This document shows positions 18,682 to 40,337 of a DNA stretch of 64,000 nucleotides, piece after piece. Position numbers and translations under genes: made by a program. Origin of the DNA: a virus. Taxonomy: Duplodnaviria > Caudoviricetes. The number at the start of each line of letters is the position of its first letter. Position 1 is the stretch's first letter. Location: IMG/VR virus record IMGVR_UViG_3300037722_000889, positions 1-64,000 of that record. One strand, 5' to 3'. The notes under the pieces are model-generated. The model had not been told where the DNA came from. It saw only the letters and a list, made by a program, of their open reading frames with translations, and did not search any database.

Positions 18682-18723
18682 TGCTAGCCTCCTCATTGAG
18701 GTTTGGATCCTGACATGTCAGGA

Positions 18724-19119
18724 TTAGTTAAGGTCGTAGTAGTACTCTCCGTCCGCCATGAACAGTCGACCAGTGTTCCGGCCTGCCTCCGCCTCTGCTT
18801 CGTACTCCTGCCAGCTCCACTCCCCGACGGGGTGGTCCGAGAATTCCCGCATGTCGCCGGAGATCAGTTGGATGAACAGGGCGTTCAGCTGTTGGTCGCT
18901 CCAGCCCGAGATTTCCTCGTCATCCCACGCGCCGAAGCCACGAACGTGGTCGCGCAGAGCCTCCCGCTCGTCATCGGTGGTCAGCAACTGGCTGTCTAAG
19001 GCTTCTTCCATGGCCGCGCGCCATGTGCGCGGCCCTGCCATGTCTCCGATCTCTGCCACGCTCGCCGAGAAATCCTTCGGCGTGCACTCCTTCACGAACT
19101 TCGTAATGTTGATCTCCAT
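18724..19119 (-). CDS. Hypothetical acidic protein
   Basis: 131 aa; stop codon overlaps the 18707 palindrome. Confidence 0.75.
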   Translation of the reverse strand: MEINITKFVKECTPKDFSASVAEIGDMAGPRTWRAAMEEALDSQLLTTDDEREALRDHVRGFGAWDDEEISGWSDQQLNALFIQLISGDMREFSDHPVGEWSWQEYEAEAEAGRNTGRLFMADGEYYYDLN

Positions 19120-19127
19120 GCTCCCTC

Positions 19128-19352
19128 CTAAAGGTCAGCTGTAGCCATGATCTGGGATACCGTGGTGTCGTAGGTCCTCGCCAACATGATCACGGTGTCC
19201 AGGCAGTAACGGTTGTCCTGCGTACCGTTCTCCAGCACGCTCAGCCACCCCTGACTGATGCCGGTCATCTCTTGCACCTGCATCTGGGTCAGCTTTGCCT
19301 GGGTGCGGTAGAACCTCAGCGCCGCGCCCATCTTCTCGTTCCACGGCCTCAT
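19128..19352 (-). CDS. XRE-family HTH regulator
   Basis: LRFYRTQAKLTQMQVQEMTGISQGWLSVLENG is a cro/cI-type HTH; ATGA overlap. Confidence 0.88.
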   Translation of the reverse strand: MRPWNEKMGAALRFYRTQAKLTQMQVQEMTGISQGWLSVLENGTQDNRYCLDTVIMLARTYDTTVSQIMATADL

Positions 19353-19564
19353 GCGACGACGACCTCCGCTTCGGTTTCGATCCACACCTTGGCCCCGCAG
19401 GGCAGCGGGTTGTCCGGCCGGTACACGATCTTGCACGGCCCGTTGACCGTGACCTCGTGGCCGTAGCGGTTGGCCTTGTAGTCCTTCACCGTGATCACGG
19501 GCAGGGCAGCGCCCTTGGCGTTGGCCTTGATGTTGTGCTGGTTCACGTGGATGCGGCTTTTCAT
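19349..19564 (-). CDS. Conserved phage hypothetical protein
   Basis: MKSRIHVNQHNIKAN...PLPCGAKVWIET. Confidence 0.8.
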   Translation of the reverse strand: MKSRIHVNQHNIKANAKGAALPVITVKDYKANRYGHEVTVNGPCKIVYRPDNPLPCGAKVWIETEAEVVVA

Positions 19565-20478
19565 GCGGCCTCCTGCACGGCGTTGAGCAGGTCGGTGACG
19601 ACCGGCGGAGCCACGGCATTGCCCAGCACGAAGTTCGCCAGGGTCTTGCTCTTGGGCAGGATGTAGGAGGAGGGGAAGCCCATGATGGTCCGGGCCTCGG
19701 TCGGCTGGACCATGCGCATGCGATCCCCGTCGACCAGCATCCAGCGGGCCTTCGTGGTCAGGGTCCCGAGCGGGCGGTCCAGGCTTCTGCCGGTCTCCCC
19801 GGATCCTGATTTATAGAAGGGCGCCACGAACTGCTCCCCGAACCGGGCACGGCCTGCCGCGATGCGGCGCAGGGTGGCCTCGCTGCGGCCGGGCCGGTGG
19901 ATCGGGTTCCACCGGTGCTGGTCCCACTCAAGGACGTCCCTGACGGGCGTGTGAGGCCGCCTGGGCAGCGCCAGCTTCAGCGGGTGCTGGGAGCGGGTGC
20001 AGACCAGGAACAGCCGCTCCCGGTGCTGGGGCACGCCGTGGTCCGCGGCGTCGAGGACGTGCGGCGAGATGGCATAGCCCAGGGCTTCCATTGCAGCGGC
20101 CCAGGCCGGGTACAACTTCCACTGGAGGAAAGCCGGCACATTTTCAACAATAACCACTTTTTCCTTGTGGACTTCAGTGCAGGTGACCACTGCCCAGGCC
20201 GTGGCCCGGGCCGCATCATGGCTGGGCCGGTCCTTGCCGCGCGCCAGGGTGTGGCCGGTGCAGGACGGGGAGGCCAGCAGGATGTCGTGGGCCGGAACCT
20301 CGGTGAAGTTGGCCTGCTGGAGGTCCTGGCAGGCGTGGACGGTGCCTGGATGGTTCCAGGAATGGATGTGCACGGCTTCGGGCCAGTGGTTGGCAGCCCA
20401 GATGACATCGACGCCGGCCAGGGTGGCGCCGGTGGTGAACCCTCCAGCGCCGGCGAACAGATCGATTGCGGTTGGCAT
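19561..20478 (-). CDS. dcm: DNA cytosine-5 methyltransferase
   Basis: DLFAGAGG (motif I), ASPSC (IV variant), ENV (VI), QHRERLF (VIII), GNAV (X). Confidence 0.92.
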   Translation of the reverse strand: MPTAIDLFAGAGGFTTGATLAGVDVIWAANHWPEAVHIHSWNHPGTVHACQDLQQANFTEVPAHDILLASPSCTGHTLARGKDRPSHDAARATAWAVVTCTEVHKEKVVIVENVPAFLQWKLYPAWAAAMEALGYAISPHVLDAADHGVPQHRERLFLVCTRSQHPLKLALPRRPHTPVRDVLEWDQHRWNPIHRPGRSEATLRRIAAGRARFGEQFVAPFYKSGSGETGRSLDRPLGTLTTKARWMLVDGDRMRMVQPTEARTIMGFPSSYILPKSKTLANFVLGNAVAPPVVTDLLNAVQEAA

Positions 20479-20517
20479 TTCTTGTCTCCCTCATTGGAGT
20501 CAGTAGTTACGGTGCGG

Positions 20518-20904
20518 TCAGCCTTCGAATACTTCATCCAGGTTGATCGCAGCCCCGGTGATGAATTCCTGTGCAACGAACGCAGGCACACGATCACCGT
20601 TAGGCTGCGTGAGGTAGGTCAGAACGGTGTCATCGCACCCTTCGATGTCGTAGTCGAGCACGGCTACTTTGGGAGCGTGCGCGACGTGGTCGGAGATAAC
20701 CCCCTGTACGAGCCCGCCTTCCACTACAATCACAATCCGTGGCTCTGGAACCGGAGTCTCCTTCACGCTCCTTGCTTCGACTATGAGACGGCTCAAGGTA
20801 GTAACGGCGTCATCGTTCTCCATGAGGAACTCGGTGCCGTCCTCTAGTTCCTCGCCGTCGTAGTTCATCCTTGCTATCGTCTGTACCAGATCACTCGGAG
20901 TCAT
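20518..20904 (-). CDS. Hypothetical protein
   Basis: RIVIVVEGGLVQGV motif; ATGA overlap. Confidence 0.7.
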   Translation of the reverse strand: MTPSDLVQTIARMNYDGEELEDGTEFLMENDDAVTTLSRLIVEARSVKETPVPEPRIVIVVEGGLVQGVISDHVAHAPKVAVLDYDIEGCDDTVLTYLTQPNGDRVPAFVAQEFITGAAINLDEVFEG

Positions 20905-21116
20905 GACTGCTTCCTCCACAGGCTTTCATCCATTTCTGCCGCTGCACGGCGGCGAGTTGCCTTACGCTCTCGTTTCTCCTGGGCCTTCTTCAAGGCGGCG
21001 AGGTCCTCTTCAGTGGTCTGGCGCCGACCGGGCAGGGTGACCGGCTTGAACAGCCGGGTCACCGCCTCCGGCCCGGCCAGGCCGGCGAGCATGGCGAGCA
21101 ATTGCGGGGCCTGCAT
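20901..21116 (-). CDS. Hypothetical basic protein
   Basis: GGAGG SD; KKAQEKRERK motif. Confidence 0.65.
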   Translation of the reverse strand: MQAPQLLAMLAGLAGPEAVTRLFKPVTLPGRRQTTEEDLAALKKAQEKRERKATRRRAAAEMDESLWRKQS

Positions 21117-21727
21117 GCTGCCTCCTTGACCTTGGCCTTGGGCTTGCTGTTCAGGGCGGCCTTCACCTTGTCGTCGGTGACGGCGAGCGCCTTGGTCTGC
21201 GGCTCGATCTTGGGCAGGAAGCCCGCCAGGGACGGGTAGTTCTCCTGCACCTGCTTGTAGGTGGTACATCCGGCCAGGGCCTGGTTGACGGCGTCAACCA
21301 AGGTGCTCTTCTTGTCGGCGATCTTGGTGCCCTTTTCCACCAGCTTCATCAGCTCCTTGTAATCGGCGGAGCCTTCTTCCACCTTGAGATCCAGGCCGTA
21401 CTGCTCGTCGGCCACGCATCGGGTCTCGTTCAGCGGCCACCAGCGCGAGTGACACATGCTATGCACCGGATTGTTTTGCCGGCTCTGGCGCCTGCCCTGG
21501 TCGTCCTTATTGACGGGCCACACCGGGATTTCGCAGTAGTTGCGGGTGGAAAGCATGCCGGTGGGAGCGGCAGCGATCCAGGCCATGACTTCTGGTGGAT
21601 ACCGTTTCGCAGCCAGGGCGGCGGTGAAGACCTTGGCCTCTTCCACGAACGCTGCCTTCAGCGGCTCGATCTCCTTATCCAGGATGGCGGTCAGTACCTT
21701 CTTGCGGATTTCGTTGGTAAGTCTCAT
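21059..21727 (-). CDS. Nmad5-like (nucleotide-modification-associated) protein
   Basis: MRLTNEIRKKVL start and CTTYKQVQENYPSLAGFLP near the end resemble that family; recalled from memory, not searched. Confidence 0.55.
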   Translation of the reverse strand: MRLTNEIRKKVLTAILDKEIEPLKAAFVEEAKVFTAALAAKRYPPEVMAWIAAAPTGMLSTRNYCEIPVWPVNKDDQGRRQSRQNNPVHSMCHSRWWPLNETRCVADEQYGLDLKVEEGSADYKELMKLVEKGTKIADKKSTLVDAVNQALAGCTTYKQVQENYPSLAGFLPKIEPQTKALAVTDDKVKAALNSKPKAKVKEAACRPRNCSPCSPAWPGRRR

Positions 21728-21774
21728 TGCGGTTCCCTCATTGGAGTGATAGTTACGATCCTGACATGTCAGGA

Positions 21775-22197
21775 TCAGTCGATGGCCGAGAAGATGTCGG
21801 TCGCCTCGGGATGGTCGTAGGCGTACGCCATCAGGCGGTCGTAGGCGTTGCGGATGGCATCCGAATCGTGCCCGCTCCACATCAAGTGGTTAAAGGTGAA
21901 GATGCAGACGATAATGCCGGCCGCATCCGGACTGACATCGCCCCCGTAGCAGTTACCATCTACCTCGATGTGCAGCTTGCCATCCGACTTCGGATACATG
22001 TAGCCGCCGCCGTTGGACAGCTTGACGAACTCCCAGTACCCGCCCTTGTACCCTTCAATCAACCGTTCCGCCATGGAGTAGATGGCGTACTCGACGGTCA
22101 GCATTTCACCGCCAAACAGGCCCGGCAGGAAGTTCAAGCGATCGTGCTCGGCTACGTGGTCAGCAAAGACTTTCTGTTCTTCGATAGATTCATTCAT
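21775..22197 (-). CDS. klcA: ArdB/KlcA antirestriction protein
   Basis: RLNFLPGLFG, YKGGYWEF..LSNGGGYMYP, SPDAAGIIVC. Confidence 0.9.
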   Translation of the reverse strand: MNESIEEQKVFADHVAEHDRLNFLPGLFGGEMLTVEYAIYSMAERLIEGYKGGYWEFVKLSNGGGYMYPKSDGKLHIEVDGNCYGGDVSPDAAGIIVCIFTFNHLMWSGHDSDAIRNAYDRLMAYAYDHPEATDIFSAID

Positions 22198-22214
22198 GGC
22201 AATGCCCTCATTGG

Positions 22215-22388
22215 TTAAAATAACAGTTCATCCACGTAATCGGGCTCCAGCCCGTACTCGTACAGCAGCTCTTCAGGATCGTCGGACCCTTCAAGCACTT
22301 GCCGGCGCATGTCCTCGACCAGGTCGTTGGCTACTTCCCGTGATAGGCCGTCTCGACGCACCAAAATGTCAGCGATGGATTCCGTCAT
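22215..22388 (-). CDS. Hypothetical protein
   Basis: 57 aa, GGAGG SD, ends YGLEPDY..LLF. Confidence 0.7.
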   Translation of the reverse strand: MTESIADILVRRDGLSREVANDLVEDMRRQVLEGSDDPEELLYEYGLEPDYVDELLF

Positions 22389-22651
22389 GACGCTTCCTCC
22401 AGCGGCCGCCTGGTGCGGGCCAGCCTGTAGGGCGGGTTCGCAATAGACAGGTTGCGCCACTGCTCTATAGCCTGGTAAGCCCGTGTAAACTCCGGCGAGA
22501 CCTTCGTGCCTTCTTTCTCATATATTTCCATCGCCCGGTGCAGCCACCCATACGCTACGTGCAGCGCACTGATGGGGTCACTCTCCGTGCCGTGCTTGAG
22601 GCCGCATTCAATCGCCTTGGCCAGTTCCGTTAGTTCGTCTTTGCGTCTCAT
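22385..22651 (-). CDS. Hypothetical protein
   Basis: 88 aa, ATGA overlaps. Confidence 0.65.
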   Translation of the reverse strand: MRRKDELTELAKAIECGLKHGTESDPISALHVAYGWLHRAMEIYEKEGTKVSPEFTRAYQAIEQWRNLSIANPPYRLARTRRPLEEAS

Positions 22652-22809
22652 GACACGCCCCTCCAGAACCGCTGCTCGTGACGACGGCGCGCAGCCTTGC
22701 GCCACCGCTTCGTCAGGTAGGGAGGGACGTAGTCAGACACGAATGCCAGGAAGGCGAACGCAAGACACAGGACGGCGAGTACGCCGGAGACTACGAACAG
22801 TGTTGCCAT
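22648..22809 (-). CDS. Small single-TM protein (not in ORF track)
   Basis: MATLFVVSGVLAVLCLAFAFLAFVSDYVPPYLTKRWRKAARRRHEQRFWRGVS; GAGGAGG SD; ATGA overlap. Confidence 0.7.
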   Translation of the reverse strand: MATLFVVSGVLAVLCLAFAFLAFVSDYVPPYLTKRWRKAARRRHEQRFWRGVS

Positions 22810-22851
22810 TGGAACCTCCTCATTGAGGTGTGATCGGTCTAGAATCTAGAC

Positions 22852-23109
22852 CTACAGTTGATAGCGGTCGTAGTTGCGGATCGCGGTGCGCTCGACGTAG
22901 TTCTCGACGAGCTGGACTTCTTCCCCTGCCGCCTCCTTGGCCTGCCGGAAGAGGGATGCATCGCAATCCTCTTCAAGATACACCGTTTCCCCTCGCTGGT
23001 ACGAGTAGGACGAGACCTTGTCCAGCAGGTTGAGGCGGGCCAGCTCGCTGCGCTTCACGTGCAGCCAGCCGTGGCCGGGGTCGGATGTGAAATGGTACTT
23101 GGTTTTCAT
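22852..23109 (-). CDS. Conserved phage hypothetical protein
   Basis: SDPGHGWL...YLEEDCDA; stop abuts a TCTAGA palindrome. Confidence 0.8.
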   Translation of the reverse strand: MKTKYHFTSDPGHGWLHVKRSELARLNLLDKVSSYSYQRGETVYLEEDCDASLFRQAKEAAGEEVQLVENYVERTAIRNYDRYQL

Positions 23110-23525
23110 GCTGCTTCTCCAGTATTGAAGGGCAGGGTGTGGCCGTCCCCCAGGATCTCGTTGACGAACGCCAGGGCATCGAACCATTCCGGTTCCACGG
23201 TGTTGTCGTTGCGGGCGTCCCCGTCGGACGTGACCTCGATCAGGTCTCCCAGGCGGTGCTTGGCCACGATCAGGGCGGCACAGACTACGTGGTCGTAGGG
23301 GTAGCGGTTGGTCTTGCAGAACCCGCTGCTCTTGGTGGACTCGATAAAGAAGTCCTCGTACGCTTCGTCTCCTACCCCGTTCAGGAAGAAGTGACTCGCG
23401 CTGATGGCGAAGTCCAGCAGCATGCCGGGTTCATTGAGCACCAGCTTTTCGACGTCGAACACGAGCGCCGCCCAAACATCGCCCGGCACCTCCTGCTTCA
23501 CTTCCCAATAATGTGTGTATCCCAT
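23106..23525 (-). CDS. Conserved phage hypothetical protein
   Basis: MGYTHYW...FCKTNRYPYD...VTSDG. Confidence 0.8.
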   Translation of the reverse strand: MGYTHYWEVKQEVPGDVWAALVFDVEKLVLNEPGMLLDFAISASHFFLNGVGDEAYEDFFIESTKSSGFCKTNRYPYDHVVCAALIVAKHRLGDLIEVTSDGDARNDNTVEPEWFDALAFVNEILGDGHTLPFNTGEAA

Positions 23526-23536
23526 GGTGGTTCTCC

Positions 23537-23977
23537 TCAGTTAGTTTGAAACTCTGACATGCCAGACGGCTCGTGGTGTCCTTCCAATACCAGCAGACAA
23601 TAGTAATTGTCTGGGTCGCCTTCATAGTGGTGCAGCTTCGCGGCCGTGCGCTGAGCCAGCTCGACCACGGTGGCAAGGTCAACAGTGATCACCTGGACGT
23701 AGTACGTATCCTGCCCATAGTTGTCCGCCAAGTCATCCGGCAGCAGCAGCAGGACCGAGTACTTGCCTGCTTCGCTTTCCTGCTCTACCGGGGTTACGAC
23801 GTATTGCGTCGGCGCCGGCAGTTCCTCCTCTTCCTTGGGCTCGGCAGCCAGCCGGAACTGCAGTTCCAGCCCGGCATGCCGGGCCAAAACGGCCAGCTCA
23901 CGTACCGTAGTGTCTTCGTCCTGCAGCGCCTCGCCCAGTGCTGCCAGTTTCATGCCGTGGTCTTGAATGCTCGTCAT
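23537..23977 (-). CDS. Hypothetical protein
   Basis: 146 aa; last codons run through a decayed CATG palindrome. Confidence 0.7.
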   Translation of the reverse strand: MTSIQDHGMKLAALGEALQDEDTTVRELAVLARHAGLELQFRLAAEPKEEEELPAPTQYVVTPVEQESEAGKYSVLLLLPDDLADNYGQDTYYVQVITVDLATVVELAQRTAAKLHHYEGDPDNYYCLLVLEGHHEPSGMSEFQTN

Positions 23978-24868: not shown

Positions 24869-24879
24869 GCCCGTTCTCC

Positions 24880-25125: not shown

Positions 25126-25126
25126 G

Positions 25127-26009: not shown

Positions 26010-26188
26010 GGCTTCTCCCTCCAGGCGTAGACCTGGGGTCGGTCGTACCGTTGCTCGTGCTCGTTCACCACTTCCACGGCATGTTTGGCGGATGCCAGGG
26101 TGAAGTGAGTTTCCAGCACGATGTCGGTTGCGGTGTTGTAGACCTCGTAATGGTCATGAGGGCTGATGGCGGGCGGGTTAGGTCTCAT
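26006..26188 (-). CDS. Hypothetical protein
   Basis: 60 aa, ATGA overlaps. Confidence 0.65.
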   Translation of the reverse strand: MRPNPPAISPHDHYEVYNTATDIVLETHFTLASAKHAVEVVNEHEQRYDRPQVYAWREKP

Positions 26189-26691
26189 ATCAGACCCCTT
26201 TCCGCGAAGCTCACGGTCTCGGTGCCGCCCACGACGATGTGATCCAGGACCCGCACGTCGATCAGGCGAGACGTATCCTGCAGCCGGCGGGTGAGGGTCT
26301 GGTCGGCCTGGCTGGGCTCCGGCACGCCAGACGGATGGTTGTGGTAGAGGATCACCGCGGCGCTGTTGTGCGCCAGCATGGACTTGGCCACCTCACGGGG
26401 GTACCCGCTGGCCCCGTCCAAGGTGCCGCGGAACAGCTGCTCGTCCTCGATCAGCCGGTGACGGTTGTCGAGATGGAGCATGCCGAACACTTCGTGCTCC
26501 AGCAGGGCGATGTGCATGATGAGGTGGTCCTTGACCATCTGCGGCGAGGACAACGGGTCGGTGGCGCGGGCCATGCGGTTCTGCAGGATGATCTTGGCCT
26601 GCTCGATGATGAGGTTGTCCGCCACGGCAGCCGGGGCCTGTGCCGGGAACAGCTGGTACGTGGGGGATGTTTCTGACTTGACTTTGTTCAT
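26185..26691 (-). CDS. radC: RadC-like JAB-domain protein
   Basis: EVFGMLHLDNRHRLI, HNHPSG, PSQAD, VLDHIVVG. Confidence 0.92.
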   Translation of the reverse strand: MNKVKSETSPTYQLFPAQAPAAVADNLIIEQAKIILQNRMARATDPLSSPQMVKDHLIMHIALLEHEVFGMLHLDNRHRLIEDEQLFRGTLDGASGYPREVAKSMLAHNSAAVILYHNHPSGVPEPSQADQTLTRRLQDTSRLIDVRVLDHIVVGGTETVSFAERGLI

Positions 26692-26745
26692 GGTGCTTCT
26701 CCTCAGTGAGAAGCGATCCTGACATGTCAGGATCGCGGTGGTTGG

Positions 26746-28207: not shown

Positions 28208-28261
28208 CGCATTTCTCCTCGTTGAGAGTGGCGGTCTAGAATCTAGACCGCCGTAGGTTGG

Positions 28262-29768: not shown

Positions 29769-29769
29769 G

Positions 29770-29934: not shown

Positions 29935-30001
29935 CTTCAGTTCTCCTCATTGAGAAAGTTGGTCTAGAATCTAGACCGGGTTGGATCCTGACATGTCAGG
30001 A

Positions 30002-30613
30002 TCAGTACGGTGCTACTATTTCACATTGCGCCAGCGGCACGGGCAGGTGTTCCGCCATGCCGTTGGTTTCCGGATCGGACCCGTAAAAGCCACAGCAGCT
30101 GTCGGTCTCCTCCTCATCCTGCTCCAGGACGAAACCGTACACGTCGCCCTGGATGAACTGGTCGTATACCTTGACCTCGCTCTTCAGGCGCTGGCTGACC
30201 TTGTCCCACAGGCTGGCGCTGATCCGCTTCTTGCCGAACTCGGCGCGCACCTTCTCCGGGGTCACGAAGATCACACCGACCTGGCCAGAGTCCCAGGGGC
30301 AGGAGAATCTCTCCGTGCTCATGGTAATACCGGAATGGTCATACAGGTACAGTGGCAGCAGGTAGATGCCACACTCTTCGGCCGTGTCGGCCAGGGTTGC
30401 GGGCCGGTCGAAGTCCCGGTAGTCGTCGCTGCGGTAATCCTCCCAGGACTCGCGGTACTTCTTGCTGCTGCGTACCGCTTCCTTCAGCTTGTCCACGCCA
30501 TCCTTGTCACCGAGGTTGTAGCGGCTGTGCCAACAGGCCATGGTACCGAGGTTGTCCCAGTCACGCGGGCTCTCCGCGTCCTGGTCGGGGATGATCTTGA
30601 GTACGTTCTTCAT
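30002..30613 (-). CDS. Conserved phage hypothetical protein
   Basis: SPRDWDNLG...LPLYLYDHSGITMS...WDSGQVG...SCCGFYG. Confidence 0.8.
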   Translation of the reverse strand: MKNVLKIIPDQDAESPRDWDNLGTMACWHSRYNLGDKDGVDKLKEAVRSSKKYRESWEDYRSDDYRDFDRPATLADTAEECGIYLLPLYLYDHSGITMSTERFSCPWDSGQVGVIFVTPEKVRAEFGKKRISASLWDKVSQRLKSEVKVYDQFIQGDVYGFVLEQDEEETDSCCGFYGSDPETNGMAEHLPVPLAQCEIVAPY

Positions 30614-30648
30614 TCGCGTTCTCCTCATTGAGAAAGTTGGCCTAGGTT

Positions 30649-30930
30649 CTAGACCGCGGCGTAGCGGGGTACGAAGAAATTCTCCAGCTTGCCGGTCTCC
30701 CGGTTCAGGTGACGGGCGATGCCGTTGACGTCGTGCATCAGGTCGTGGTCTTCTGCGTTTGCCAGCCCGCTCAGACGCAGTGGCGTGTGCAGGTGAACGG
30801 CCGCCAGGTCCATCTGCACGCCGAGCCGGTCGACACTGTACCCGTAGTGATCAGCCGCGATCTTGCGCACTCGCGCAGTGATGACATCTACGTGTATCCG
30901 TTCTTCTTTGGTGAATGTTGCAAATTTCAT
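30649..30930 (-). CDS. Conserved phage hypothetical protein
   Basis: MDLAAVH..PLRL...HDVNGIARHLNRETGKLENFFVPRYA. Confidence 0.8.
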   Translation of the reverse strand: MKFATFTKEERIHVDVITARVRKIAADHYGYSVDRLGVQMDLAAVHLHTPLRLSGLANAEDHDLMHDVNGIARHLNRETGKLENFFVPRYAAV

Positions 30931-30967
30931 GATGTTCTCCTTGGGTTGAAATCCTGACATGTCAGAG

Positions 30968-31612
30968 TTACCAGTAATCCCGTTCCACTTCCTCGCAGGT
31001 GGCATACCCGCCACCGTACCTCAGCCTGAACTCCTGGCCTACGTGCTCCGCGTGCTTGGCACGCGGGTCCACCGCTTTTGCAATGGCCCAGAACTGCTGG
31101 TTGGCCTTGCCGATGTCTCCGAACCGGCGCTTGGCCAGGTTGTAACCGTGGCGCAGGAAGTGCAGGGAGTCCGTCCAGAACTGCGGGTCCACCTCGATGT
31201 CAGGGTCCATCCCTCTCATGCCTACGTCGATGATCGTATGGAATGCATCATCACAGTCGTGCCGGCGGGTACGCGGCACCGGCATCCGGTACGAACACCC
31301 GTTCGCGTAATACCCCGCCAAGCTGGCCGCATCCCTTGCGAGGTTCTCTTCCGCCGAGTACATGTTGCCCTGGCCATCCCGGCTCAAGTCGCTCCACTCG
31401 CCGCGCACGAACCACACGCCTCCCAGCGCCACCAGCTCGTCACCGACCGAGCCAATCGCCTTCAACCCATACTGGTGCTCCAGCAGGTCATGGGCGATCA
31501 GCAGGCCTTCCCTGGCGACCATCGGGGTTTCAATCATGCGCACGTCCTTGCACATCAGTCCCAGCTCTCCGAGACATATGTCCTCCCGCACTACCAAACT
31601 CACGCTTCTCAT
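30968..31612 (-). CDS. Hypothetical protein flanked by hybrid palindromes
   Basis: 214 aa; LLIAHDLLEH and DELVALGG suggest an HxxxE(H) metal site. Confidence 0.75.
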   Translation of the reverse strand: MRSVSLVVREDICLGELGLMCKDVRMIETPMVAREGLLIAHDLLEHQYGLKAIGSVGDELVALGGVWFVRGEWSDLSRDGQGNMYSAEENLARDAASLAGYYANGCSYRMPVPRTRRHDCDDAFHTIIDVGMRGMDPDIEVDPQFWTDSLHFLRHGYNLAKRRFGDIGKANQQFWAIAKAVDPRAKHAEHVGQEFRLRYGGGYATCEEVERDYW

Positions 31613-31659
31613 GGTTACCCTCCTCATTGAGGTATTGAAACTCTGACATGTCAGGACCG

Positions 31660-32932: not shown

Positions 32933-32978
32933 TGTCTTCTCCTCATTGAGAAAGGTTGGGAATCCTGACATGTCAGGA

Positions 32979-33473
32979 TCAGGCAGGGGTGGCTTCCTTC
33001 AGCACCTTCTCGATGTGGCTCCAGATAGGATGCCGGCAGATGAACTTCCATTGCCCGCTTTCCAGCAGGTGAAGACTGAAATAGGACTGGCCTGCTGTCA
33101 TCTCGATCTTCCACAAGTTGCTGCTGCCTTCTACGGTAGCGATCCAAGCCAGGTTGTTGCCGACCGTAGGGATAGTCTGCGTGGTGATCTTGCGAGGTGG
33201 CGCTGTCGGCGGCCCGTCAATGTACTCAAGAGTGGTGCGGATACTTACGGCGAGCGAAGACTCGTCCTGCCCGTTCTCCTCCAGCTCGTCCAGCAGCCGC
33301 TGCGCCAATGCGTACAGCTCCGGTGCCATGCGCATCAGCCTTCCATTCGCCTCGGCTTCCTGCAGGCCGATGGATCGGCTACATTCGCGACCGGCGCTGT
33401 AGTACAGGTAATCCTCGTCGTCATCTTGGACCGGCCCGAAATCGGCCCAAGGGCCTTGGGTAAATTTTGCCAT
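32979..33473 (-). CDS. Hypothetical protein
   Basis: TQGPW...EANGRLMRMAPEL, a common phage domain. Confidence 0.75.
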   Translation of the reverse strand: MAKFTQGPWADFGPVQDDDEDYLYYSAGRECSRSIGLQEAEANGRLMRMAPELYALAQRLLDELEENGQDESSLAVSIRTTLEYIDGPPTAPPRKITTQTIPTVGNNLAWIATVEGSSNLWKIEMTAGQSYFSLHLLESGQWKFICRHPIWSHIEKVLKEATPA

Positions 33474-33528
33474 GCTCTTCTCCTCAGTGAGAAACTCTGA
33501 CATGTCAGAGTTTGTGATGGTCTAGGTT

Positions 33529-33714
33529 CTAGACCTCGACGTTGCGCCGCCGGATACGGTCAAGCAACTGGGCGCAGGTAAGGTCGTTCTCTTCTATCTC
33601 GTCCACCAGCTCTGGGCAGTCGAACATGGCGTCATACGCTTCCTCCGTCTTCCCGTGCCGGTGCAGGTTGAGGATCATCCGCTCAACCACGGGCTGTGGA
33701 TACCTCTCGCTCAT
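33529..33714 (-). CDS. Hypothetical protein
   Basis: 61 aa; TAG stop lies inside a TCTAGA palindrome. Confidence 0.7.
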   Translation of the reverse strand: MSERYPQPVVERMILNLHRHGKTEEAYDAMFDCPELVDEIEENDLTCAQLLDRIRRRNVEV

Positions 33715-34324: not shown

Positions 34325-34326
34325 GG

Positions 34327-34518: not shown

Positions 34519-34563
34519 GGTGCTTCTCCTCACTCTAGATTCTAGAATCCTGACATGTCAGGA

Positions 34564-35004
34564 TTACCAATCAAATATCGGGAACAGGTTCTTGTACAGC
34601 TCTGCGTCCCGGTCGAACATGACGTAGCGGTGGCCCTTCTTACGCGCCCAGGCCAGGATGTCGTCCAGGTACGGGCAGCCCATGCTCTCTCCCCTGCGCA
34701 TGGCGTTGGGGTCGGTGTAGGTCAGCCAACCATATTCACCCAGACTATAACTGATGCAATTATCCAGGCTGCCTTCATCCAACTTCTCCGCCGTTTCCTT
34801 CGGCACGTGGCCGGTAGACAGGATCGGGCAGGTGAAGGTCTCGACTTGGGTCTCTGCACGTGCCAGTTGCATTCGCAATGCTTCACACTCTTCGCGCAGA
34901 GTGAGGAAGGTCTTGACTCCGGCTTCCTGTTTCAGCTGTGCCATCTCTTCCCGCAAGGCTTCACACTCCTCGCGCCAGGCGCGGTTCGACTTGACTTCTG
35001 CCAT
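34564..35004 (-). CDS. Hypothetical protein
   Basis: Coiled N-terminus; LSTGHV...YGWL...YVMFDRD C-terminal domain. Confidence 0.75.
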   Translation of the reverse strand: MAEVKSNRAWREECEALREEMAQLKQEAGVKTFLTLREECEALRMQLARAETQVETFTCPILSTGHVPKETAEKLDEGSLDNCISYSLGEYGWLTYTDPNAMRRGESMGCPYLDDILAWARKKGHRYVMFDRDAELYKNLFPIFDW

Positions 35005-35043
35005 GATTTTTCTCCTTACTCTAGGTTTTAGAATCCTGACATG

Positions 35044-35445
35044 TCAGGATTGCTCGCTCTCCGCCACTGCTCGGCGCATGATCCAGTGTGCCTGATCCAA
35101 CAGGGCCAGGGCTTGCGTGGTCAGCGCGCATGGTATGGGCGGCAGGTCTGGCCTGGCTTCATCCGTCTCCAGTTGGTAATGCAGCTTTTCAATTTGCTGC
35201 GCCTCTTCCAACAGCCACAGGTTGGCAGGTGGTCGATCCCGCTCGTACTCCTTGCGTGCATCTTCCAGCCACTGCACCGCTTCAAGCAGGGAGGAGCGCG
35301 TGGCAAAGCCTTCTTCCCTGCCGTCCTCGTGCTTCAGCATGATCTCGAATGCATTCCAGGTGAGTCGCTCGATGACCCACACCTGTGGACCGATTAGATA
35401 CTGCCAACAGTGAGGGCCAACTATGGTAAGAGTGTTGGCGCGCAT
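35044..35445 (-). CDS. Hypothetical protein
   Basis: 133 aa; TGA stop lies inside a CATG palindrome. Confidence 0.7.
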   Translation of the reverse strand: MRANTLTIVGPHCWQYLIGPQVWVIERLTWNAFEIMLKHEDGREEGFATRSSLLEAVQWLEDARKEYERDRPPANLWLLEEAQQIEKLHYQLETDEARPDLPPIPCALTTQALALLDQAHWIMRRAVAESEQS

Positions 35446-35771
35446 GGTGCTTCTCCTTCCGGCAGGAGTGACTCCAGGAACTCACGCTCCTGACGGGCGA
35501 GGTCGGCGAGTTCATCGGTCCAGGCGATGTGCAGCCACACGTCGTGCGCTTCCATGTACTTCCCTATCTCCCCATCAAACAGATCGTACGGAGTGCTGCC
35601 GCACCCTCGCACGCCGGTGGCCTCCCGCACAGGGCAGCCGCTACAGTCTTTAACGAAGAACAACTTGCACAGTGGACAGTTTGCCGTGCCCAGGTCCCGC
35701 CCGTCATGACACTCAATTTCCTTCCACTTCTCGATACTGCCGCGCAGGGCGGCCAGAGTTTGTTCATCCAT
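35421..35771 (-). CDS. Cys-rich hypothetical protein
   Basis: SIEKW...CPLC...CSGCP...GCGSTPY. Confidence 0.75.
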   Translation of the reverse strand: MDEQTLAALRGSIEKWKEIECHDGRDLGTANCPLCKLFFVKDCSGCPVREATGVRGCGSTPYDLFDGEIGKYMEAHDVWLHIAWTDELADLARQEREFLESLLPEGEAPCAPTLLP

Positions 35772-35932
35772 ATCGTTTCTCCTCATTGAGAAACTCTGAC
35801 ATGTCAGAGTTTCAGGCGTTGATCCAGTGCCGTTGGAAGCGGCGGATATACCGCTTCTGCTGCGGCCAGGGGACCGGCAGGAGGGTGCAGAGGGCGCACT
35901 GGTTCCTGCCGGTGGTAATGAACCGCAGCGGG

Positions 35933-36130
35933 TTACAGGGCATACCGGGTAGCCTGGACATGAATGTGGCGCTTGGGCAGGCGGTGGCGTGCATCAGCCA
36001 CAGCTTCCAGAAGCTCCGCACGGGCCTCCTGAGCGGCGATCAGGTTCTCGCGGGTGGCGCAGTCACGCAGGCGCTTGCAGGCCTGGCGGTAGGCGAGGCG
36101 CAGGCAGGTGAGGGTGTAGAGGTTCTTCAT
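35933..36130 (-). CDS. Hypothetical protein
   Basis: 65 aa, AAGGAG SD. Confidence 0.6.
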   Translation of the reverse strand: MKNLYTLTCLRLAYRQACKRLRDCATRENLIAAQEARAELLEAVADARHRLPKRHIHVQATRYAL

Positions 36131-36234
36131 GGCTTTCTCCTTCATTGGAAATGCACCACTGGGATTCCCCTGGCCTCAATGCAAGGGGGAGTGGTGCTGG
36201 TTTGGGTGTAACGTATATCAGTTCGAGGGTATAT

Positions 36235-36480
36235 TCAAGCGGCCTCGGCCTGGGCGTTCGTCCGGGCCAGCTCCCGGCGCAGGTAGGCCTGGGTGACCGC
36301 GGAGTCGCTCAGGTCCGTCGCTTCCTGGCAGGCATAGCCGGCCAGGTAGATGTTGATGCCCCTTACCTTCTGGGCAGTCTCATTCCACGCCTCTGGCGTG
36401 TCGCAGCCTTCGTTGCAGTCCCACAGGAAGATGAGGGTCTGCTCCAGGTTGTCGAGTTCGGCTTTATCTTCAGGGGTCAT
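36235..36480 (-). CDS. Hypothetical protein
   Basis: 81 aa, AAGGAG SD. Confidence 0.7.
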   Translation of the reverse strand: MTPEDKAELDNLEQTLIFLWDCNEGCDTPEAWNETAQKVRGINIYLAGYACQEATDLSDSAVTQAYLRRELARTNAQAEAA

Positions 36481-36564
36481 GATGGTCTCCTTCATTGGAA
36501 AGGTCGGATCGTCCGACAGGTTGATCCCGATATGTCGGAAGGGTGGATCCTGACATGTCAGGAT

Positions 36565-36870
36565 CTAGGTTCTAGACTCGCTGGCCTCCTTTACTGCGCC
36601 TACGAAGGCGGCAACATGCTGGGGCAGGTCCACCGGCTTTCCGGACAGTGCGGCTTCTTCGAATCCGCCGGCAACCTCCAAGGCGTCCAGTATCCCCATG
36701 GGCTCCCCGGTCACCTGGTAGTACAGCGCGCTCAGGGCCATGCCGGCGCATTCCAAGGCCCCTTGCGCGTACAGGTTCTGGCCGTCGTCCTCCCCCTCGA
36801 TTCGGTCCATCGCGGCGCCGAGGATGATTCCAGTTACGAATGCAAGCTGCTCGTGGCTCATTGGGTGCAT
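36565..36870 (-). CDS. Hypothetical protein
   Basis: 101 aa between two composite palindrome sites. Confidence 0.7.
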   Translation of the reverse strand: MHPMSHEQLAFVTGIILGAAMDRIEGEDDGQNLYAQGALECAGMALSALYYQVTGEPMGILDALEVAGGFEEAALSGKPVDLPQHVAAFVGAVKEASESRT

Positions 36871-36970
36871 AGTGCTCTCCTTGGTTGGGATCCTGACATG
36901 TCAGGATCTAGGTTCTAGGGCTGCCGGCCTTCATAGGGGAGGGCGGCGGGGCCGGCTTGCCGCGTGGCCG

Positions 36971-37002
36971 GTTGCGTGACTTGTTGCGTGACTTGTTGCG
37001 TG
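36971..37002. repeat. 12-bp tandem repeat (GTTGCGTGACTT) x about 2.7
   Basis: gttgcgtgactt gttgcgtgactt gttgcgtg. Confidence 0.9.
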
Positions 37003-37171
37003 TCGATGCCAGCGGTGGTTTACAACTGGCTAAAAAAGCAACAGTGAAAATTATTTGTCCTAGCTAATATTGGCTAGACTCAGTCTAAACCGGAGCCTGA
37101 TTTTGCCTGGCTTTTTGGCAGGTGAGGCTCCTCGGCCTGAAGTGTATTAGAGTTTCTGCATACTGGCACTA

Positions 37172-37725
37172 ATATTATTAGGAGCTTCTAATAATTTTCG
37201 GAAAAAACGTGTGTAATGCCTTATTTTAAGGGGTGAGAGGCACGTGGATTCCGTCCGTGGAGCGGCGTGTAATCGTGTAATGAAGGGAGGGTGGCGGTGG
37301 TGGAACCCAAGCAGGGCCTGGCTTTACACCGATTACACGAGTTACACAGTGAAAGTGAACAAAAAGTTTCTCTGCCTCACCCAGTTTAGGCCCCACCCCA
37401 GTTTCAGGAAGAAAATTTCCCGAAATCGTGAATTTTTGGGGTTCACCATAAAATTTTAGTGGACTGCACTTTGCAAAGTTGTGAAGCGTTTTCAATCTTG
37501 CTTGGGTATAAAACGGGTAGGGGGTCAAAACTTTTTATTCACTTTCACTGTGTAACTCGTGTAACTGGTGTAAAGCTTTACCCTGCCTGGGTTTCACCAC
37601 CGCCATCCTGCCTTCATTACACCATTACACCCTCATTTCCCAACCAAATCCACCTGCATCTCGCCCCTTAAAATAAGCTATTACACACGTTTTTTCCGAA
37701 AATTATTAGAATCTCCTAATAATAT
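37172..37725. repeat. 198-bp imperfect inverted repeat (candidate origin or control element)
   Basis: Arms 37172-37369 and 37528-37725 align without gaps; 169/198 identical by manual count. Confidence 0.95.
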
Positions 37726-37812
37726 ACGTACGCGTATATATTAGCCCTTCATCATATTCGACCGTCAAAACGGCCTGGACCTCCCGATCGGCGCCTGCCC
37801 TTCAAAAATCGC

Positions 37813-37860
37813 TTGACAGGCCCGGAAATTCGACGTAACCTGCGGTAGCAGGTTACGTCG
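37813..37860 (+). promoter_or_regulatory. sigma70-like promoter with the -10 inside a 13-bp-stem palindrome
   Basis: TTGACA-N17-TAACCT; CGACGTAACCTGC-GGTA-GCAGGTTACGTCG. Confidence 0.65.
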
Positions 37861-37925
37861 GGGAAAATGGAGAACAACAGGAGAACACGGGGTTAAACCC
37901 GGTATCTCAAATACTGGTTTACATC

Positions 37926-37971
37926 TTGACTTTCGCCCAGAGGGCGAGTAACCTCGGCCCGAGGTTACTCG
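37926..37971 (+). promoter_or_regulatory. Second sigma70-like promoter with the -10 inside a 12-bp-stem palindrome
   Basis: TTGACT-N17-TAACCT; CGAGTAACCTCG-GCC-CGAGGTTACTCG. Confidence 0.65.
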
Positions 37972-37985
37972 TTCACCACTGGATT

Positions 37986-38285
37986 TCAAAAATTGCTGGC
38001 CTTCATTCGGTTCAGCAGCTCCCGCCACCGGTTGTACCCCTTCACTTCCCGCCGCGCCACCCTGAACATCCGAGCGTGCTGCGGGCTGCACGGGTAGGTC
38101 AGGTGCACGTCGATGCAGGTCAAGATCGCGACCTTGTCCGTGATCCCCATCCGCAGTGCCAGCAGCTGCCGGTCGATCCAGTCGCCATCGGCGACCAGGT
38201 GCGGCGTGAGGAAGCACTCGCCACCGGCAGGGGAGGGCGGGTATTCAGTGGCCAGACGGACGGCCATGGCGTGATACGTTGACAT
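37986..38285 (-). CDS. Hypothetical protein
   Basis: 99 aa, GGAG SD, GC3-rich codons. Confidence 0.65.
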   Translation of the reverse strand: MSTYHAMAVRLATEYPPSPAGGECFLTPHLVADGDWIDRQLLALRMGITDKVAILTCIDVHLTYPCSPQHARMFRVARREVKGYNRWRELLNRMKASNF

Positions 38286-38549
38286 TGGGATTGCTCCAGT
38301 GTGGGAAGGCATTTCTGCCAGCCTTCCGTTCGTTTTTGCCAGCCTTCCGTTCGTTTCGGCGGCCAGCGCCTGTGACTCCCAGATGCCGCCTCACCACCGA
38401 TGCCCACAGCGCCCCTGGCCGGCGGTGCCGGCTTTTCAAGGGGAGTGGGTAGGGCAGTGGTGAAGCGACATGAGGCAGTGCCCAGGGCTTGGGTCTGCGT
38501 GAATGCGTCGAACCTGCAACTCACCACCGATCCTGACATGTCAGGATCG

Positions 38550-39250
38550 ACCAGGTGCCGCGGATGGCACGCGCCGGGGTCGAAGTCCGGCTCCGCCCGT
38601 ACGTCGGTGAGAGGTACGGTGGTGAGGTCCCTGCAGGGGACAATATGATTGGTCTCCCGGTATATTGTTGACCGGGTACCACGCGGTTATCCAAGCGCAT
38701 GGGCTCGCCATGCTAGTAGGCATTTTCGGTGGACCGCTCCACCGTCAGGGCATCCTAGTGTCTCGCACGCCGTGGTCACCACGTGAAGGGAAAAATTCAG
38801 TGGCGACGGTAGGCGATTCAGATGCGTAGCATGCAGGAGGACGCACCGCCCCTTTCGAGGGGTGTGGCCTATGTGAGTATAAGCTGGCATGGGGTGCCCA
38901 GCGACGGTGGCCCGATTCTGTGCTCGCCGTTCGACGAGTCTCGGTTTCGGATCGCTACTCTCCTGCTATTACCTGACCACCGGTTTTATTGGTACCAGGA
39001 AACCGGCAAAGGAACTGGAGTCTTGACGGCGCTCCACTCTGGTCAAGTGGTCCCGGGGTATCATTCCGGCCACTTTTCCGCATTACCTCCCGTCGATATG
39101 GGACGGGTACCGGCTACCGCGTGCCACGGTGCCCGAAGGGCCACAACCCTTCGCTTCCTTGACTTCCCTTTGTAGTCCGCACCAGATGGACGGCTCCTGC
39201 CTGCACGCCCCCACGTCGATGCTACCGTGACCACGTGTCCATCTGAAAAC
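38550..39250 (+). ncRNA. Candidate large structured RNA
   Basis: At least 14 stems of 5-13 bp, with a UUCG loop and G-U pairs on the plus strand; no convincing ORF. Confidence 0.5.
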
Positions 39251-39313
39251 CTGTATGCCAGCGCCCAGCGCCAGGCCCGGGCCAGTGGCCGATCCTGACA
39301 TGTCAGGATCACC

Positions 39314-39419
39314 GCTGGCCGAGAAATTGTGCCCGCGCACCAGGCAAAACCCTGGCGCCGGGGAAAACGCCCACGCGCCCGGGAAAAGCCCGGCGCGCGG
39401 GAAATCACCACCGGCCAGC
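39314..39419 (+). ncRNA. Candidate small multi-stem RNA between two palindromes
   Basis: Closing stem GCTGGCCG/CGGCCAGC with inner hairpins that have A-rich loops. Confidence 0.4.
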
Positions 39420-39485
39420 CGGCGGGAGACTGAATCCTGACATGTCAGGATCGCCCTTTTGTGTGCGCACGCACGCACGCGCACA

Positions 39486-39551
39486 CAAAAAGGCCCGCCC
39501 GGCAAGCCGGGCAGGATGAATAGGGGAAGCCCGCCGGGAGTGCCGGCGGGC
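39486..39551 (-). terminator. Tandem GC hairpins; the second is followed by TTTTT
   Basis: GCCCGCCGG-CACTC-CCGGCGGGC, then GCCCGG-CTTG-CCGGGC...TTTTT, downstream of the 39559..40287 gene. Confidence 0.75.
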
Positions 39552-39558
39552 TATGGGG

Positions 39559-40287
39559 TTACGCGCGGAGTCGGCGCGCGGTCTTTTCGGCGTCCGTCTT
39601 GTGCTCGGGGGTTGCCTTGGTACCCTTGGGAACGGCTACCGGCGCGGCGGAGTCGATCGGGATACCCTTGGAAGCCTTGCGCGGCTTGCGGGTTGCCTTG
39701 GGCTTGCTGGCCTTTGCCATGGCGTCAAATTCACGCGCCAGTGTGGCCAGCGTTTCTTTGCTAAGCCCTTTGGCCAGTTCCCGGATAACGTCCGGGAGGT
39801 TCAAGCCATTGGGTACCATGGCGTCCCGTACCGGCTTGCATACGTCCGCAACGGACAGGCGCACCGGCTGGACCTGTTTCGGCTGGCCGTTGCTGGGAGT
39901 CGTTGTGGCGGGTGCTTCCGGCTCAGCCTTGGCGGGTGCTTCCGGCTCAGCCTTGGCGGGTGCCATGGACAGGTCCAACGGGAATTCATAGACCCCAGTA
40001 TTTGGATAGCGTTTCATCTGGCCAGCCGGGAACAGGAAGCCAGAATCAGTAACGGCGCGGCGTATCAGACGCTGGCAAGAGTTCCATTCTGTGTCCGTCA
40101 AGTCTTTCATGATGGCAACCATGGAAGCCTGTCGGCTTGCGGCGTCCGTACTGGCCGGAATGGTTGCGTCCGCGCGGACAATGGCGCGCAGTCCAAGGCT
40201 GAAATTTTCGGCACGGCCCAGAGCGACGCGGAATTCAATCAACAGGCTGGACACGGTAGCGGTCTTAAGATCGAAAGTATTTTTCAT
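39559..40287 (-). CDS. Hypothetical first left-arm protein with PAKAEPEA repeat and basic tail
   Basis: 242 aa; 24-nt tandem repeat at 39907-39963. Confidence 0.75.
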   Translation of the reverse strand: MKNTFDLKTATVSSLLIEFRVALGRAENFSLGLRAIVRADATIPASTDAASRQASMVAIMKDLTDTEWNSCQRLIRRAVTDSGFLFPAGQMKRYPNTGVYEFPLDLSMAPAKAEPEAPAKAEPEAPATTTPSNGQPKQVQPVRLSVADVCKPVRDAMVPNGLNLPDVIRELAKGLSKETLATLAREFDAMAKASKPKATRKPRKASKGIPIDSAAPVAVPKGTKATPEHKTDAEKTARRLRA

Positions 40288-40337
40288 GGCGTAAACCCTC
40301 TTTGGTTTGTGTGATCCTGACATGTCAGGATCTGGGG

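Follow-up and report, generated by a model that had tools for sequence, protein, structure and literature searches.

A stop-registered palindrome at the unit boundaries of the early gene arm of an uncultured sediment phage

Dispersed intergenic dyad repeats have been reported in Cluster O, Cluster K and T1-like phages, and their function is still unknown. Cluster O mycobacteriophages carry more than 30 copies of the 17-bp dyad TGTTCGG-N3-CCGAACA, of unknown function (Cresawn et al. 2015, PMC4351075); in Cluster K, start-associated sequences (SAS), a 13-bp conserved leader also without a known function, stand at the starts of a subset of genes, often after inverted repeats (Pope et al. 2011, PMC3203893); and the T1-like phages T1, TLS and Stevie possess 22-bp intergenic repeats whose function is likewise unknown (PMC4319613). 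T4-like phages carry promoter-early stem-loop (PeSL) cassettes, which need no recombinase of their own for genes to be inserted, deleted or replaced by recombination between copies (Arbiol et al. 2010, PMC2839356; Comeau et al. 2014, PMC4122927), and the stoperators of Cluster A phages (L5 gp71 type) halt elongating polymerase when bound by one phage protein (PMC9283540, PMC6550527). Here we describe a palindrome, Pal-A, from bases 1-64,000 (the window) of the 78,682-bp virus record IMGVR_UViG_3300037722_000889, which is rated 94% complete and derives from an uncultured sediment phage. Nearly every boundary between early gene units of this phage carries an identical palindrome of 18-24 bases.

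The 12-nt core of Pal-A, CTGACATGTCAG, occurs in 17 exact copies (0.00 expected, 100 shuffles) in which every base is invariant. All lie within positions 18,710-40,328, in the leftward early arm, and none occurs elsewhere in the 78,682-bp record, which agrees with a preliminary description of this DNA that had listed 17 perfect cores, confined to the early/accessory arm and absent from the replication and virion modules. Without exception the copies are non-coding or on a stop codon, at unit boundaries of a single temporal class of genes. Two self-complementary flank types extend the core, type A (GATC/GATC) and type B (AACT/AGTT): 13 copies read ATC-core-GAT or longer (18-24 bp), two read AAACT-core-AGTTT (22-24 bp) and two are chimeric. 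As genes within units mostly overlap by 4 nt, the palindromes separate translationally coupled blocks.

All early-arm genes are on the minus strand, and the joints, together with the palindrome copies, leaders and early features given below, are read on that coding strand. A typical joint consists of a stop codon, 2 nt, GATC-CTGACATGTCAG-GATC, a short CA-rich linker, the leader CTCAATGAGGAG and ATG. The stop codon keeps a register to the core, being TGA or TAA followed by 2 nt in seven joints and TAG followed by 3 nt in one, while in one further joint it lies inside the core. The eight stops previously said to abut or overlap the site (18724, 21775, 30002, 30968, 32979, 34564, 35044 and 36565) are true ends of open reading frames (ORFs), and do lie 2-3 nt before the core or, at 35044, within it. 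The fullest joint is that of copy 14 (29984-30003), which reads stop, Pal-A, CAACCC, Pal-B (a second palindrome, see below), AACTTT, ribosome-binding site (RBS) and ATG. At copy 11 (32962-32979) a TGA stands 2 nt before the core, copy 16 (21757-21776) abuts the stop of an ArdB/KlcA-type antirestriction gene (21775-22197), and the 24-bp copy 15 (26713-26736) is found upstream of a RadC-like gene (26185-26691). The last copy, number 17 (18707-18724), is followed by a unit of three genes (18681 to 17796) that ends with a sigma factor gene. A decayed 18th copy, CTGGCATGTCAG, with a single mismatch and only its right arm of type B, lies at 23554-23565; the ORF upstream of it reads through the copy and stops in the RBS motif.

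Two other elements recur at these boundaries. Pal-B (GGTCTAGAWYCTAGACC) is present in eight copies (22836-22852, 28230-28252, 29961-29977, 30642-30652, 33522-33532, 34535-34545, 36565-36575 and 36908-36918) and one degenerate copy (35021-35031), at the same class of boundaries and either before or after Pal-A or alone. The consensus leader with its RBS, CTCA(A/C)TGAGGAG, has 13 minus-strand copies, including the one at 18689-18700 and those starting at 22816, 23533, 26699, 27074, 29520, 29943, 30621, 31620, 32939, 33480 and 35779, and two on the plus strand (41688 and 53267); its distance from the palindrome is variable, as had been noted earlier. The right arm of Pal-A itself carries AGGA, yet a separate consensus RBS is used in this phage. 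As a rule, it is Pal-A, Pal-B and the leader CTCAATGAGGAG that together connect one translational unit of the leftward early arm to the next. Together with its flanks (TTCTC...GAGAA) the leader can also form a small hairpin in which part of the Shine-Dalgarno sequence is included, and a protein with a CsrA-like domain (15547-16140) could act on these GGA-containing leaders.

In an alignment of the 17 sites all information is confined to the 20-bp dyad, with 0 other conserved positions within 40 nt on either side, and this rules out a two-box promoter. The finding bears on the proposal that the palindromes are phage-specific promoters, each a recognition element for host polymerase together with a phage cofactor, in the manner of the 28-bp intergenic repeats of Pseudomonas phage YuA, which coincide with transcription starts and depend on a phage factor (PMC10914365). 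One of the YuA repeats precedes an antirestriction gene, as is the case here, the CTGACA of the palindrome matches TTGACA at five of six positions, and a TAGAGT box is found 18 nt downstream at two joints. However, the 17 sites share no second element at a fixed distance, promoter-like matches are at chance level and without sigma70-type geometry, the YuA repeat is asymmetric with a -35/-10 geometry that the Pal-A dyad does not have, and a dyad would fire both ways, so that we consider this explanation very improbable. Hairpin promoters of the N4 type were rejected, as a virion RNA polymerase gene was not seen and the tail module holds two very large ORFs. An effect of Dam methylation was also rejected, GATC being at its expected frequency, and host quorum-sensing, LexA and Pho boxes presumably do not apply to Pal-A because of misfits in spacing or sequence.

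The joints share with PeSLs a short composite structure, in which an upstream stop codon is followed by a stem-loop and then by the Shine-Dalgarno sequence and start codon of the next gene, and both are concentrated among small accessory early genes. Chimeric and duplicated joints (see below) are the same kind of footprint as recombination between PeSL copies leaves. Differences are that PeSLs have a strong sigma70 promoter, while none is detectable in the joints of this phage, that PeSL stem-loops are heterogeneous GC-rich terminators rather than one invariant sequence, and that PeSL mini-circles have been demonstrated experimentally whereas only contigs were inspected here. The Cluster O repeats resemble Pal-A in being many copies of one dyad, enriched in a leftward non-structural arm, and deletions between copies have occurred among relatives; about a third of their copies, however, are inside genes, they are spread genome-wide without a set position relative to stop codons, while all copies of Pal-A are at unit boundaries and in register with a stop. 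In Cluster K the design has the same two parts as a leader CTCAATGAGGAG following Pal-A or Pal-B, but the inverted repeats of the extended SAS (ESAS) are imperfect, 17 bp long and 4-13 bp apart, and are tied to the start codon instead of the upstream stop. The T1-like phages are lytic and have 16-20 copies of one intergenic repeat, which differs from Pal-A in being asymmetric and oriented with transcription. Finally, stoperators are likewise short, near-identical sites, present by the dozen in the narrow intergenic gaps of an arm. They are, however, asymmetric 13-bp sequences oriented with transcription and bound by a monomeric immunity repressor in temperate phages, whereas Pal-A is a perfect dyad and this phage has no recognisable repressor or integrase. 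It looks lytic, since no integrase was found in the record.

Of several explanations for the joints we favour, tentatively and with a probability of roughly 0.4, one in which Pal-A is an RNA hairpin that punctuates early transcripts, is perhaps read by the orphan first early protein, and serves secondarily as a joint for short-homology recombination. The sites and their placement, the stop register, flank covariation, recombination footprints, absence of a recombinase and a relative of like layout with a different palindrome are observed; that RNA rather than DNA is what is read, and likewise the reader and the effect on expression, we infer. Pal-A would act after transcription as a CAUG-looped hairpin, whose 8-12-bp stem overlaps the upstream stop codon at its foot. 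On the long early transcripts it would label where each unit ends, as a processing mark or a barrier to decay, and/or would provide a docking site for a phage early protein, for which the orphan gene 39559-40287 is the best candidate. Recombination by short homology at the palindromes, which can serve as such places because all copies are identical, would insert or replace units and so produce the look of cassettes without a dedicated recombinase.

The fixed register of the stop codon is expected of a signal tied to translation or to the end of a unit, and not of a transcription roadblock. Furthermore, the flanks of the core co-vary while the arms stay complementary, with a covariation score of 0.232 against 0.157 in shuffles (reached by 1 of 500) and with 85.9% of the flank cells paired as opposed to 27-45% in slid controls. 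The pairs at position +/-4 are G-C in eight cases, A-U in five and G-U in three, with one mismatch, and positions +/-1 and +/-2 switch together between UC/GA and CU/AG. Read in sense, the imperfect flank cells comprise six wobble pairs and three mismatches, while the antisense reading, obtained by complementing, gives three and six; this asymmetry leans to a hairpin but is suggestive only. In their sequence context the hairpins are predicted to form.

Several points weigh against a hairpin. The covariation stems from few independent events, several joints being copies of one another. Invariance of all 12 core nucleotides, those of the would-be loop among them, exceeds the needs of a passive hairpin and would fit a sequence-specific reading of duplex DNA equally well; a perfect dyad of 20 bp has the shape of a classic site for a dimeric repressor. 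In the fused joints 36889-36918 and 36546-36575 no hairpin is predicted for Pal-B and yet its sequence is conserved, which points to sequence rather than structure. Every ribosome that terminates would melt a stem starting 2 nt past the stop codon. Words resembling boxA are at chance level, none of them beside a palindrome, and, save for one after gene 1, the arm has no more intrinsic terminators than chance would give, so that an antitermination role is not required. The evidence from the relative, described below, comes from one short contig in which two of five copies are degenerate.

It is possible, though in our view less likely, that the palindromes are instead a network of DNA operators or roadblocks, where a dimeric phage (or host) protein on the duplex would block or pace RNA polymerase along the early arm, and would thereby shut the early genes off or time the arrival at the sigma factor gene. 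A perfect dyad of 18-24 bp with every core base invariant is well suited to this, as are the restriction to one temporal gene class, the placement of the first copy downstream of the early promoters and ahead of gene 1, and that of the last copy directly before the unit carrying the sigma factor gene. Conservation of the Pal-B sequence where its hairpin is not predicted points the same way. Precedents are the conserved inverted repeats of phiC31 and the KorA/KorB operators of RK2, as well as two of the systems introduced above, the Cluster A stoperators and the Cluster O dyads; the latter were read by their authors as sites of a dimeric regulator (PMC9283540 and PMC4351075, respectively). On the other hand, operators give no reason for the stop-codon register or for the covariation that keeps the arms complementary, the palindrome of the relative tolerates a centre of 1 or 3 nt, and three of the sites bracket ORF-free pieces of only 142 and 750 nt. 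The sole recognisable site-specific DNA-binding protein in the arm is a 74-aa XRE-type helix-turn-helix protein (19128-19352), which had been put forward as the possible operator binder; we found no link, as its gene is beside no site, 400 bp from the nearest one, and belongs to a methylase operon, in which a small ORF shares 4 nt with it and in turn overlaps the C5-methylase gene. Pfam and PHROG scans of about 90 products for a binder or nuclease returned only this protein, the sigma factor and the CsrA-like protein, and searches with the XRE protein and the product of gene 1 against cultured phages and PDB sequences were uninformative.

The hairpin reading gains from a relative that has the same layout with a different palindrome. 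In IMGVR_UViG_3300037751_000519 (L039), whose terminase is 50% identical, five copies of the palindrome GCTAACTCCAAC-N-GTTGGAGTTAGC, unrelated to Pal-A, are found in 1.5 kb at the start of the early arm (242-1551). The two arms are separated by 1 or 3 nt, the left one contains or abuts a stop codon (TAA or TGA), and the right one carries GGAG or GGAGG 6-8 nt before the next ATG. A leader copy is followed by gene 1, a copy overlapping its stop, an intrinsic terminator and a copy before the next gene. An RBS in a stem whose other arm holds the upstream stop codon is a classic design for translational coupling. The variable centre and the RBS inside the stem would fit a hairpin better than a rigid dimer operator, while the use of a separate RBS outside Pal-A means that the exact effect in this phage may differ from that in L039. 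A further relative, L038, has the same palindrome (a copy is at 681-707), and its gene 1 protein is 95% identical to that of L039, whereas the first early proteins of this phage and of the L038/L039 lineage show no detectable similarity. Such a pairing of palindrome and gene 1 is compatible with gene 1 encoding the reader, but far too little to show so. The first copy is no more than 0.7-1.5 kb from the end of either contig, possibly as a result of assemblies breaking at the repeats, and an attempt to extend the L039 lineage sequence found nothing further. The preliminary description considered no role at the RNA level; the layout of L039 and the covariation of the flanks now favour one.

The head of the early arm is arranged as sigma54-type promoters, Pal-A copy 1, gene 1, a terminator and three more palindromes. 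Two promoters of this type (TGGCAC-N5-CTGCA) are at 40446-40518, and copy 1 (GATC-core-GATC, 40313-40332) lies about 115-190 nt downstream of them in the 5' leader of gene 1. This first early gene (39559-40287), between copies 1 and 2, encodes an orphan of 242 aa whose C-terminal half is basic and of low complexity; no family, solved relative or homologue was found for it and its predicted model is poor. An intrinsic terminator, a hairpin with a T-run, follows at 39487-39515, and copy 2 (39434-39451) comes directly past the terminator hairpins. Copy 3 (39291-39310) encloses with copy 2 a hairpin-rich, ORF-free piece of 142 nt (39311-39433), and with the 22-bp copy 4 (38528-38549) a structured-looking, equally ORF-free stretch of about 750 nt (38550-39290). 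Neither piece matched an Rfam family even at E <= 1; they may be non-coding RNA "cassettes", and their bracketing by palindromes indicates that the element marks the ends of units whether or not a gene follows.

Phage lambda has a comparable head, in which the protein N acts through boxA-boxB antitermination at two nut copies with a 5-bp stem and a GNRA-like pentaloop. The order promoter, hairpin, first early gene and terminator, seen here and in L039, would correspond to pL-nutL-N-tL1, and the first gene product is in both cases poorly conserved, basic and probably disordered. Pal-A differs in lacking a boxA, in its predicted 8-12-bp stem with a CAUG loop and in its 17 copies, and the 242-aa product of gene 1 is unlike N.

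Other features of this region may concern its regulation. No sigma54-activator domain was found in six-frame searches of the whole record. Between the twin promoters and the first Pal-A are two unique palindromes CGTCAA-N4-TTGACG (40338-40353 and 40370-40385), in which GTCAAATAGTTGAC matches the Pseudomonas FleQ box consensus GTCaNTAAATTGAC (PMC6120874, PMC8125075) at 11 of 14 positions. With a phage sigma factor closest in likeness to FliA, early and later expression may be wired like the flagellar cascade of the host, sigma54 and FleQ first and then sigma28. The direct repeat GTTGATTTCGGTGG occurs twice (40759-40772 and 40832-40845) in the AT-rich divergent region upstream of the promoters and could be an enhancer or origin element. 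A 26-bp palindrome of alternating purines and pyrimidines, GTGTGCGCGTGCGTGCGTGCGCACAC, lies at 39461-39486 between the terminator of gene 1 and copy 2. Within the gene-poor 36,900-37,990, a large and imperfect inverted repeat (37172-37725), in which the words GTGTAA/TTACAC recur, surrounds an AT-rich centre and could be an origin or another DNA-level site. A protelomerase or telomere-resolution site was rejected, as the 632-aa ORF at 41700-43598 is tail-fibre-like and a protelomerase is absent.

Footprints of recombination are evident in the flanks of the sites. The only two mixed copies of Pal-A are neighbours that enclose the gene 30968-31612: copy 12 (31639-31658, core at 31643) has an A-like left arm, GGTC, and a B-type right arm, AGTT, and copy 13 (30950-30969, core at 30954) is its reciprocal, with a B-type left arm, AACT, and an A-type right arm, GATT. 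Reciprocal chimeras are the expected product of a B-type unit inserted or swapped into an A-type array by crossover inside the core, and not of an inversion, which would give two identical chimeras. Two other genes stand between duplicated joints. The gene 36565-36870 lies between joints identical over 31 nt, that of copy 5 (36889-36908, fused to Pal-B 36908-36918) and that of copy 6 (36546-36565, fused to Pal-B 36565-36575), the latter containing the stop TAG of the gene. The DUF5983 gene (34564-35004) lies between copy 8 (35032-35051, AATC-core-GATT), whose core contains the stop TGA of the gene 35044-35382 and which is followed by the degenerate Pal-B, and copy 9 (34546-34565), which has a stop 2 nt before the core; these joints are identical over 23 nt, and 24 of 30 right-flank bases beyond the core are alike. 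The two B-type sites, copy 7 (35790-35813, GAAACT-core-AGTTTC, 24 bp, directly followed by a consensus RBS) and copy 10 (33492-33513, 22 bp, with Pal-B 33522-33532 ahead of it), have about 38 nt of palindrome plus leader in common at 35796 and 33497, with one mismatch (hand count from the aligned sequences). Since chimeric and duplicated joints flank single genes, whole joints appear to have been copied and exchanged, as in T4 PeSLs (PMC2839356) and Cluster O repeats (PMC4351075). Joints next to each other did not resemble one another significantly more than those further apart (p = 0.08).

Contigs of the same phage from three to four other sediment metagenomes, at a depth of only 3-6, showed no alternative joint at any palindrome; the phage is letter-for-letter the same in them, and the contigs span several palindromes in the same order. 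At such low depth, and as contigs drop rare forms, the lack of alternative junctions is weak negative evidence. Some joints that were reported in these contigs were rejected as noise, having short sides, a low-likeness setting and positions away from the palindromes. Around copy 7, word depth in the other metagenomes is 2-3 times higher at 35742-36408, a piece that may be common to other organisms. Two overlapping minus-strand ORFs (35812-36021 and 35933-36130) are there in different frames, only the first ending against the Pal-A at 35796, and ARAGORN calls an odd 97-nt tRNA-Arg (35825-35921) on the opposite strand; a gene in 35812-36130 may be frameshifted or called wrongly.

The chimeric and duplicated joints thus support one part of the earlier interpretation, that the arm is built of units of one to several genes joined at these sites and that some of them have been exchanged. 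The likeness to an integron does not stand, as there is no recombinase, no attC-like structure and no joint at the palindromes in the other contigs. That no recombinase is visible in the window had been observed before, and the rest of the record adds none: searches for tyrosine (PF00589) and serine (PF00239) recombinases found nothing in all 78,682 bp, and six-frame searches of the whole record for Y1 transposase (PF01797), HNH and ParB domains were also negative. The attC sites of integrons measure 57-141 nt and are imperfect palindromes, with extrahelical bases and with R''-L''/L'-R' boxes whose core is GTTRRRY. Pal-A has no GTTRRRY or RYYYAAC box, and is a perfect dyad of 18-24 bp without conserved flanks. 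A true site-specific cassette system of the integron kind, with its recombinase in the missing 6% of the genome or in the host, could account for the overlap with the stop codon, as in attC, for units of one to several genes and for reciprocal chimeras resembling attL/attR products. We nevertheless regard it as extremely unlikely, given a record estimated to be 94% complete without an integrase or resolvase, a 20-bp perfect dyad with a palindromic centre in place of the attC features, and excision joints not seen in contigs from other samples. Units of one direction and few detectable promoters would fit promoterless cassettes, which integrons read from a single Pc promoter at attI, but an attI/Pc arrangement is missing, and sigma54-type promoters and the terminator after gene 1 stand at the head.

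Alternatively, Pal-A could be purely a recombination joint or a selfish palindromic element with no role in expression, which spreads or persists by mediating the insertion and exchange of units through short homology or a host enzyme in trans, for which XerCD acting on pdif modules and REP-associated tyrosine transposases (RAYT) acting on repetitive extragenic palindromic (REP) elements are models. Single genes flanked by reciprocal chimeric sites and by duplicated joints would be explained, as would a cargo of accessory, anti-defence type (ArdB/KlcA, RadC, DUF5983, DUF6874 and C5 methylase), the stop codons that Pal-B plus Pal-A provide in all three frames, and a repeat private to the lineage. 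Against this, a recombinase and a Y1 transposase are absent, and no bacterial genome in the searched collection has more than one copy (the 18-mer of Pal-A was found once each in 17 unrelated genomes), so the element is not of the host REP type; to our knowledge it is also without likeness to dif or attC. No alternative junctions were seen in four other metagenomes (at low depth), all copies are in one temporal gene class, and the same layout with another sequence in the relative implies that a function is under selection. We therefore think a joint without any role in expression improbable.

The setting of the array was obtained from a codon-usage gene call combined with family scans. Virion genes occupy the plus strand from about 41,000 to 73,000, and a single long minus-strand arm starts at about 40,290 with some 55 small, mostly orphan genes. 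These are followed by genes for a sigma factor, the CsrA-like protein, ligase, thymidylate synthase, deoxynucleoside monophosphate kinase, primase, helicase and DNA polymerase, and the arm goes on past the ends of the record with genes for an SbcCD-like nuclease. About 20% of the early arm is non-coding according to our gene calls. Few of the small early genes could be assigned to a family, and those are typical of anti-defence or of plasmid leading regions; they include, besides those named above, genes for DUF6874 (30649-30930), a C5 methylase (19561-20478) and Nmad5 (21059-21727). The FliA-like phage sigma factor (17796-18314) is the first recognisable regulator past the end of the palindrome array. 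An RNA of the Rfam family Proteo-phage-1 (RF03044) is located on the minus strand at 4972-5079, between the helicase gene and the next gene, with 53 bits, above the gathering score. Strong avoidance is seen across the record for several palindromes of 6 bp (GAGCTC 0 against 17.5 expected, GGGCCC 0 against 22.8, AGCGCT 1 against 23.1 and AACGTT 0 against 6.0), which points to restriction systems in the host, and CTAG is at half its expectation, with more than half of its occurrences in the early arm, mostly within Pal-B.

The nearest cultured relatives, the Pseudomonas siphophages Lana and PMBT3, are distant (about 66% nucleotide identity over 400 bp of the portal gene), and megablast of the phage against cultured phages gave 0 matches. 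Pal-A appears to be private to this lineage: its exact 18-mer is absent from the other viral contigs searched, metagenome and genome contigs have only single chance copies, and the whole joint as query gave chance matches only. No kin were found with a 416-aa early protein and the sigma factor as queries. Relatives by terminase are at most 57% identical, and only L038 and L039 extend into their own early arm, the remainder showing coding repeats in tail-fibre genes and no palindrome family. A comparable array is absent from Lana, and from four large phages that have the ligase in common but an unrelated terminase.

A bolder extension of the hairpin reading, which we consider unlikely although worth stating, is that the phage's fast-evolving first early protein reads the palindromes, be it as DNA or as RNA hairpins, in the manner of address labels and so licenses or paces the whole early arm, and that the same labels let accessory and anti-defence units be captured and swapped by short homology. 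The phage would then possess a recombinase-free capture and expression system analogous to an integron, a design that might be common to many uncultured lytic phages though carried by differing sequences. The remaining probability goes to explanations not listed here.

Pal-A adds an unusually clean case to the dispersed intergenic repeats of phages, in that one invariant palindrome is restricted to the unit boundaries of one temporal class, is locked to stop codons, bears the footprints of crossovers and has a counterpart of the same design in a relative. This makes it directly testable whether such a signal is read as RNA or as DNA, and whether it doubles as a joint for the gain of anti-defence genes by lytic phages.

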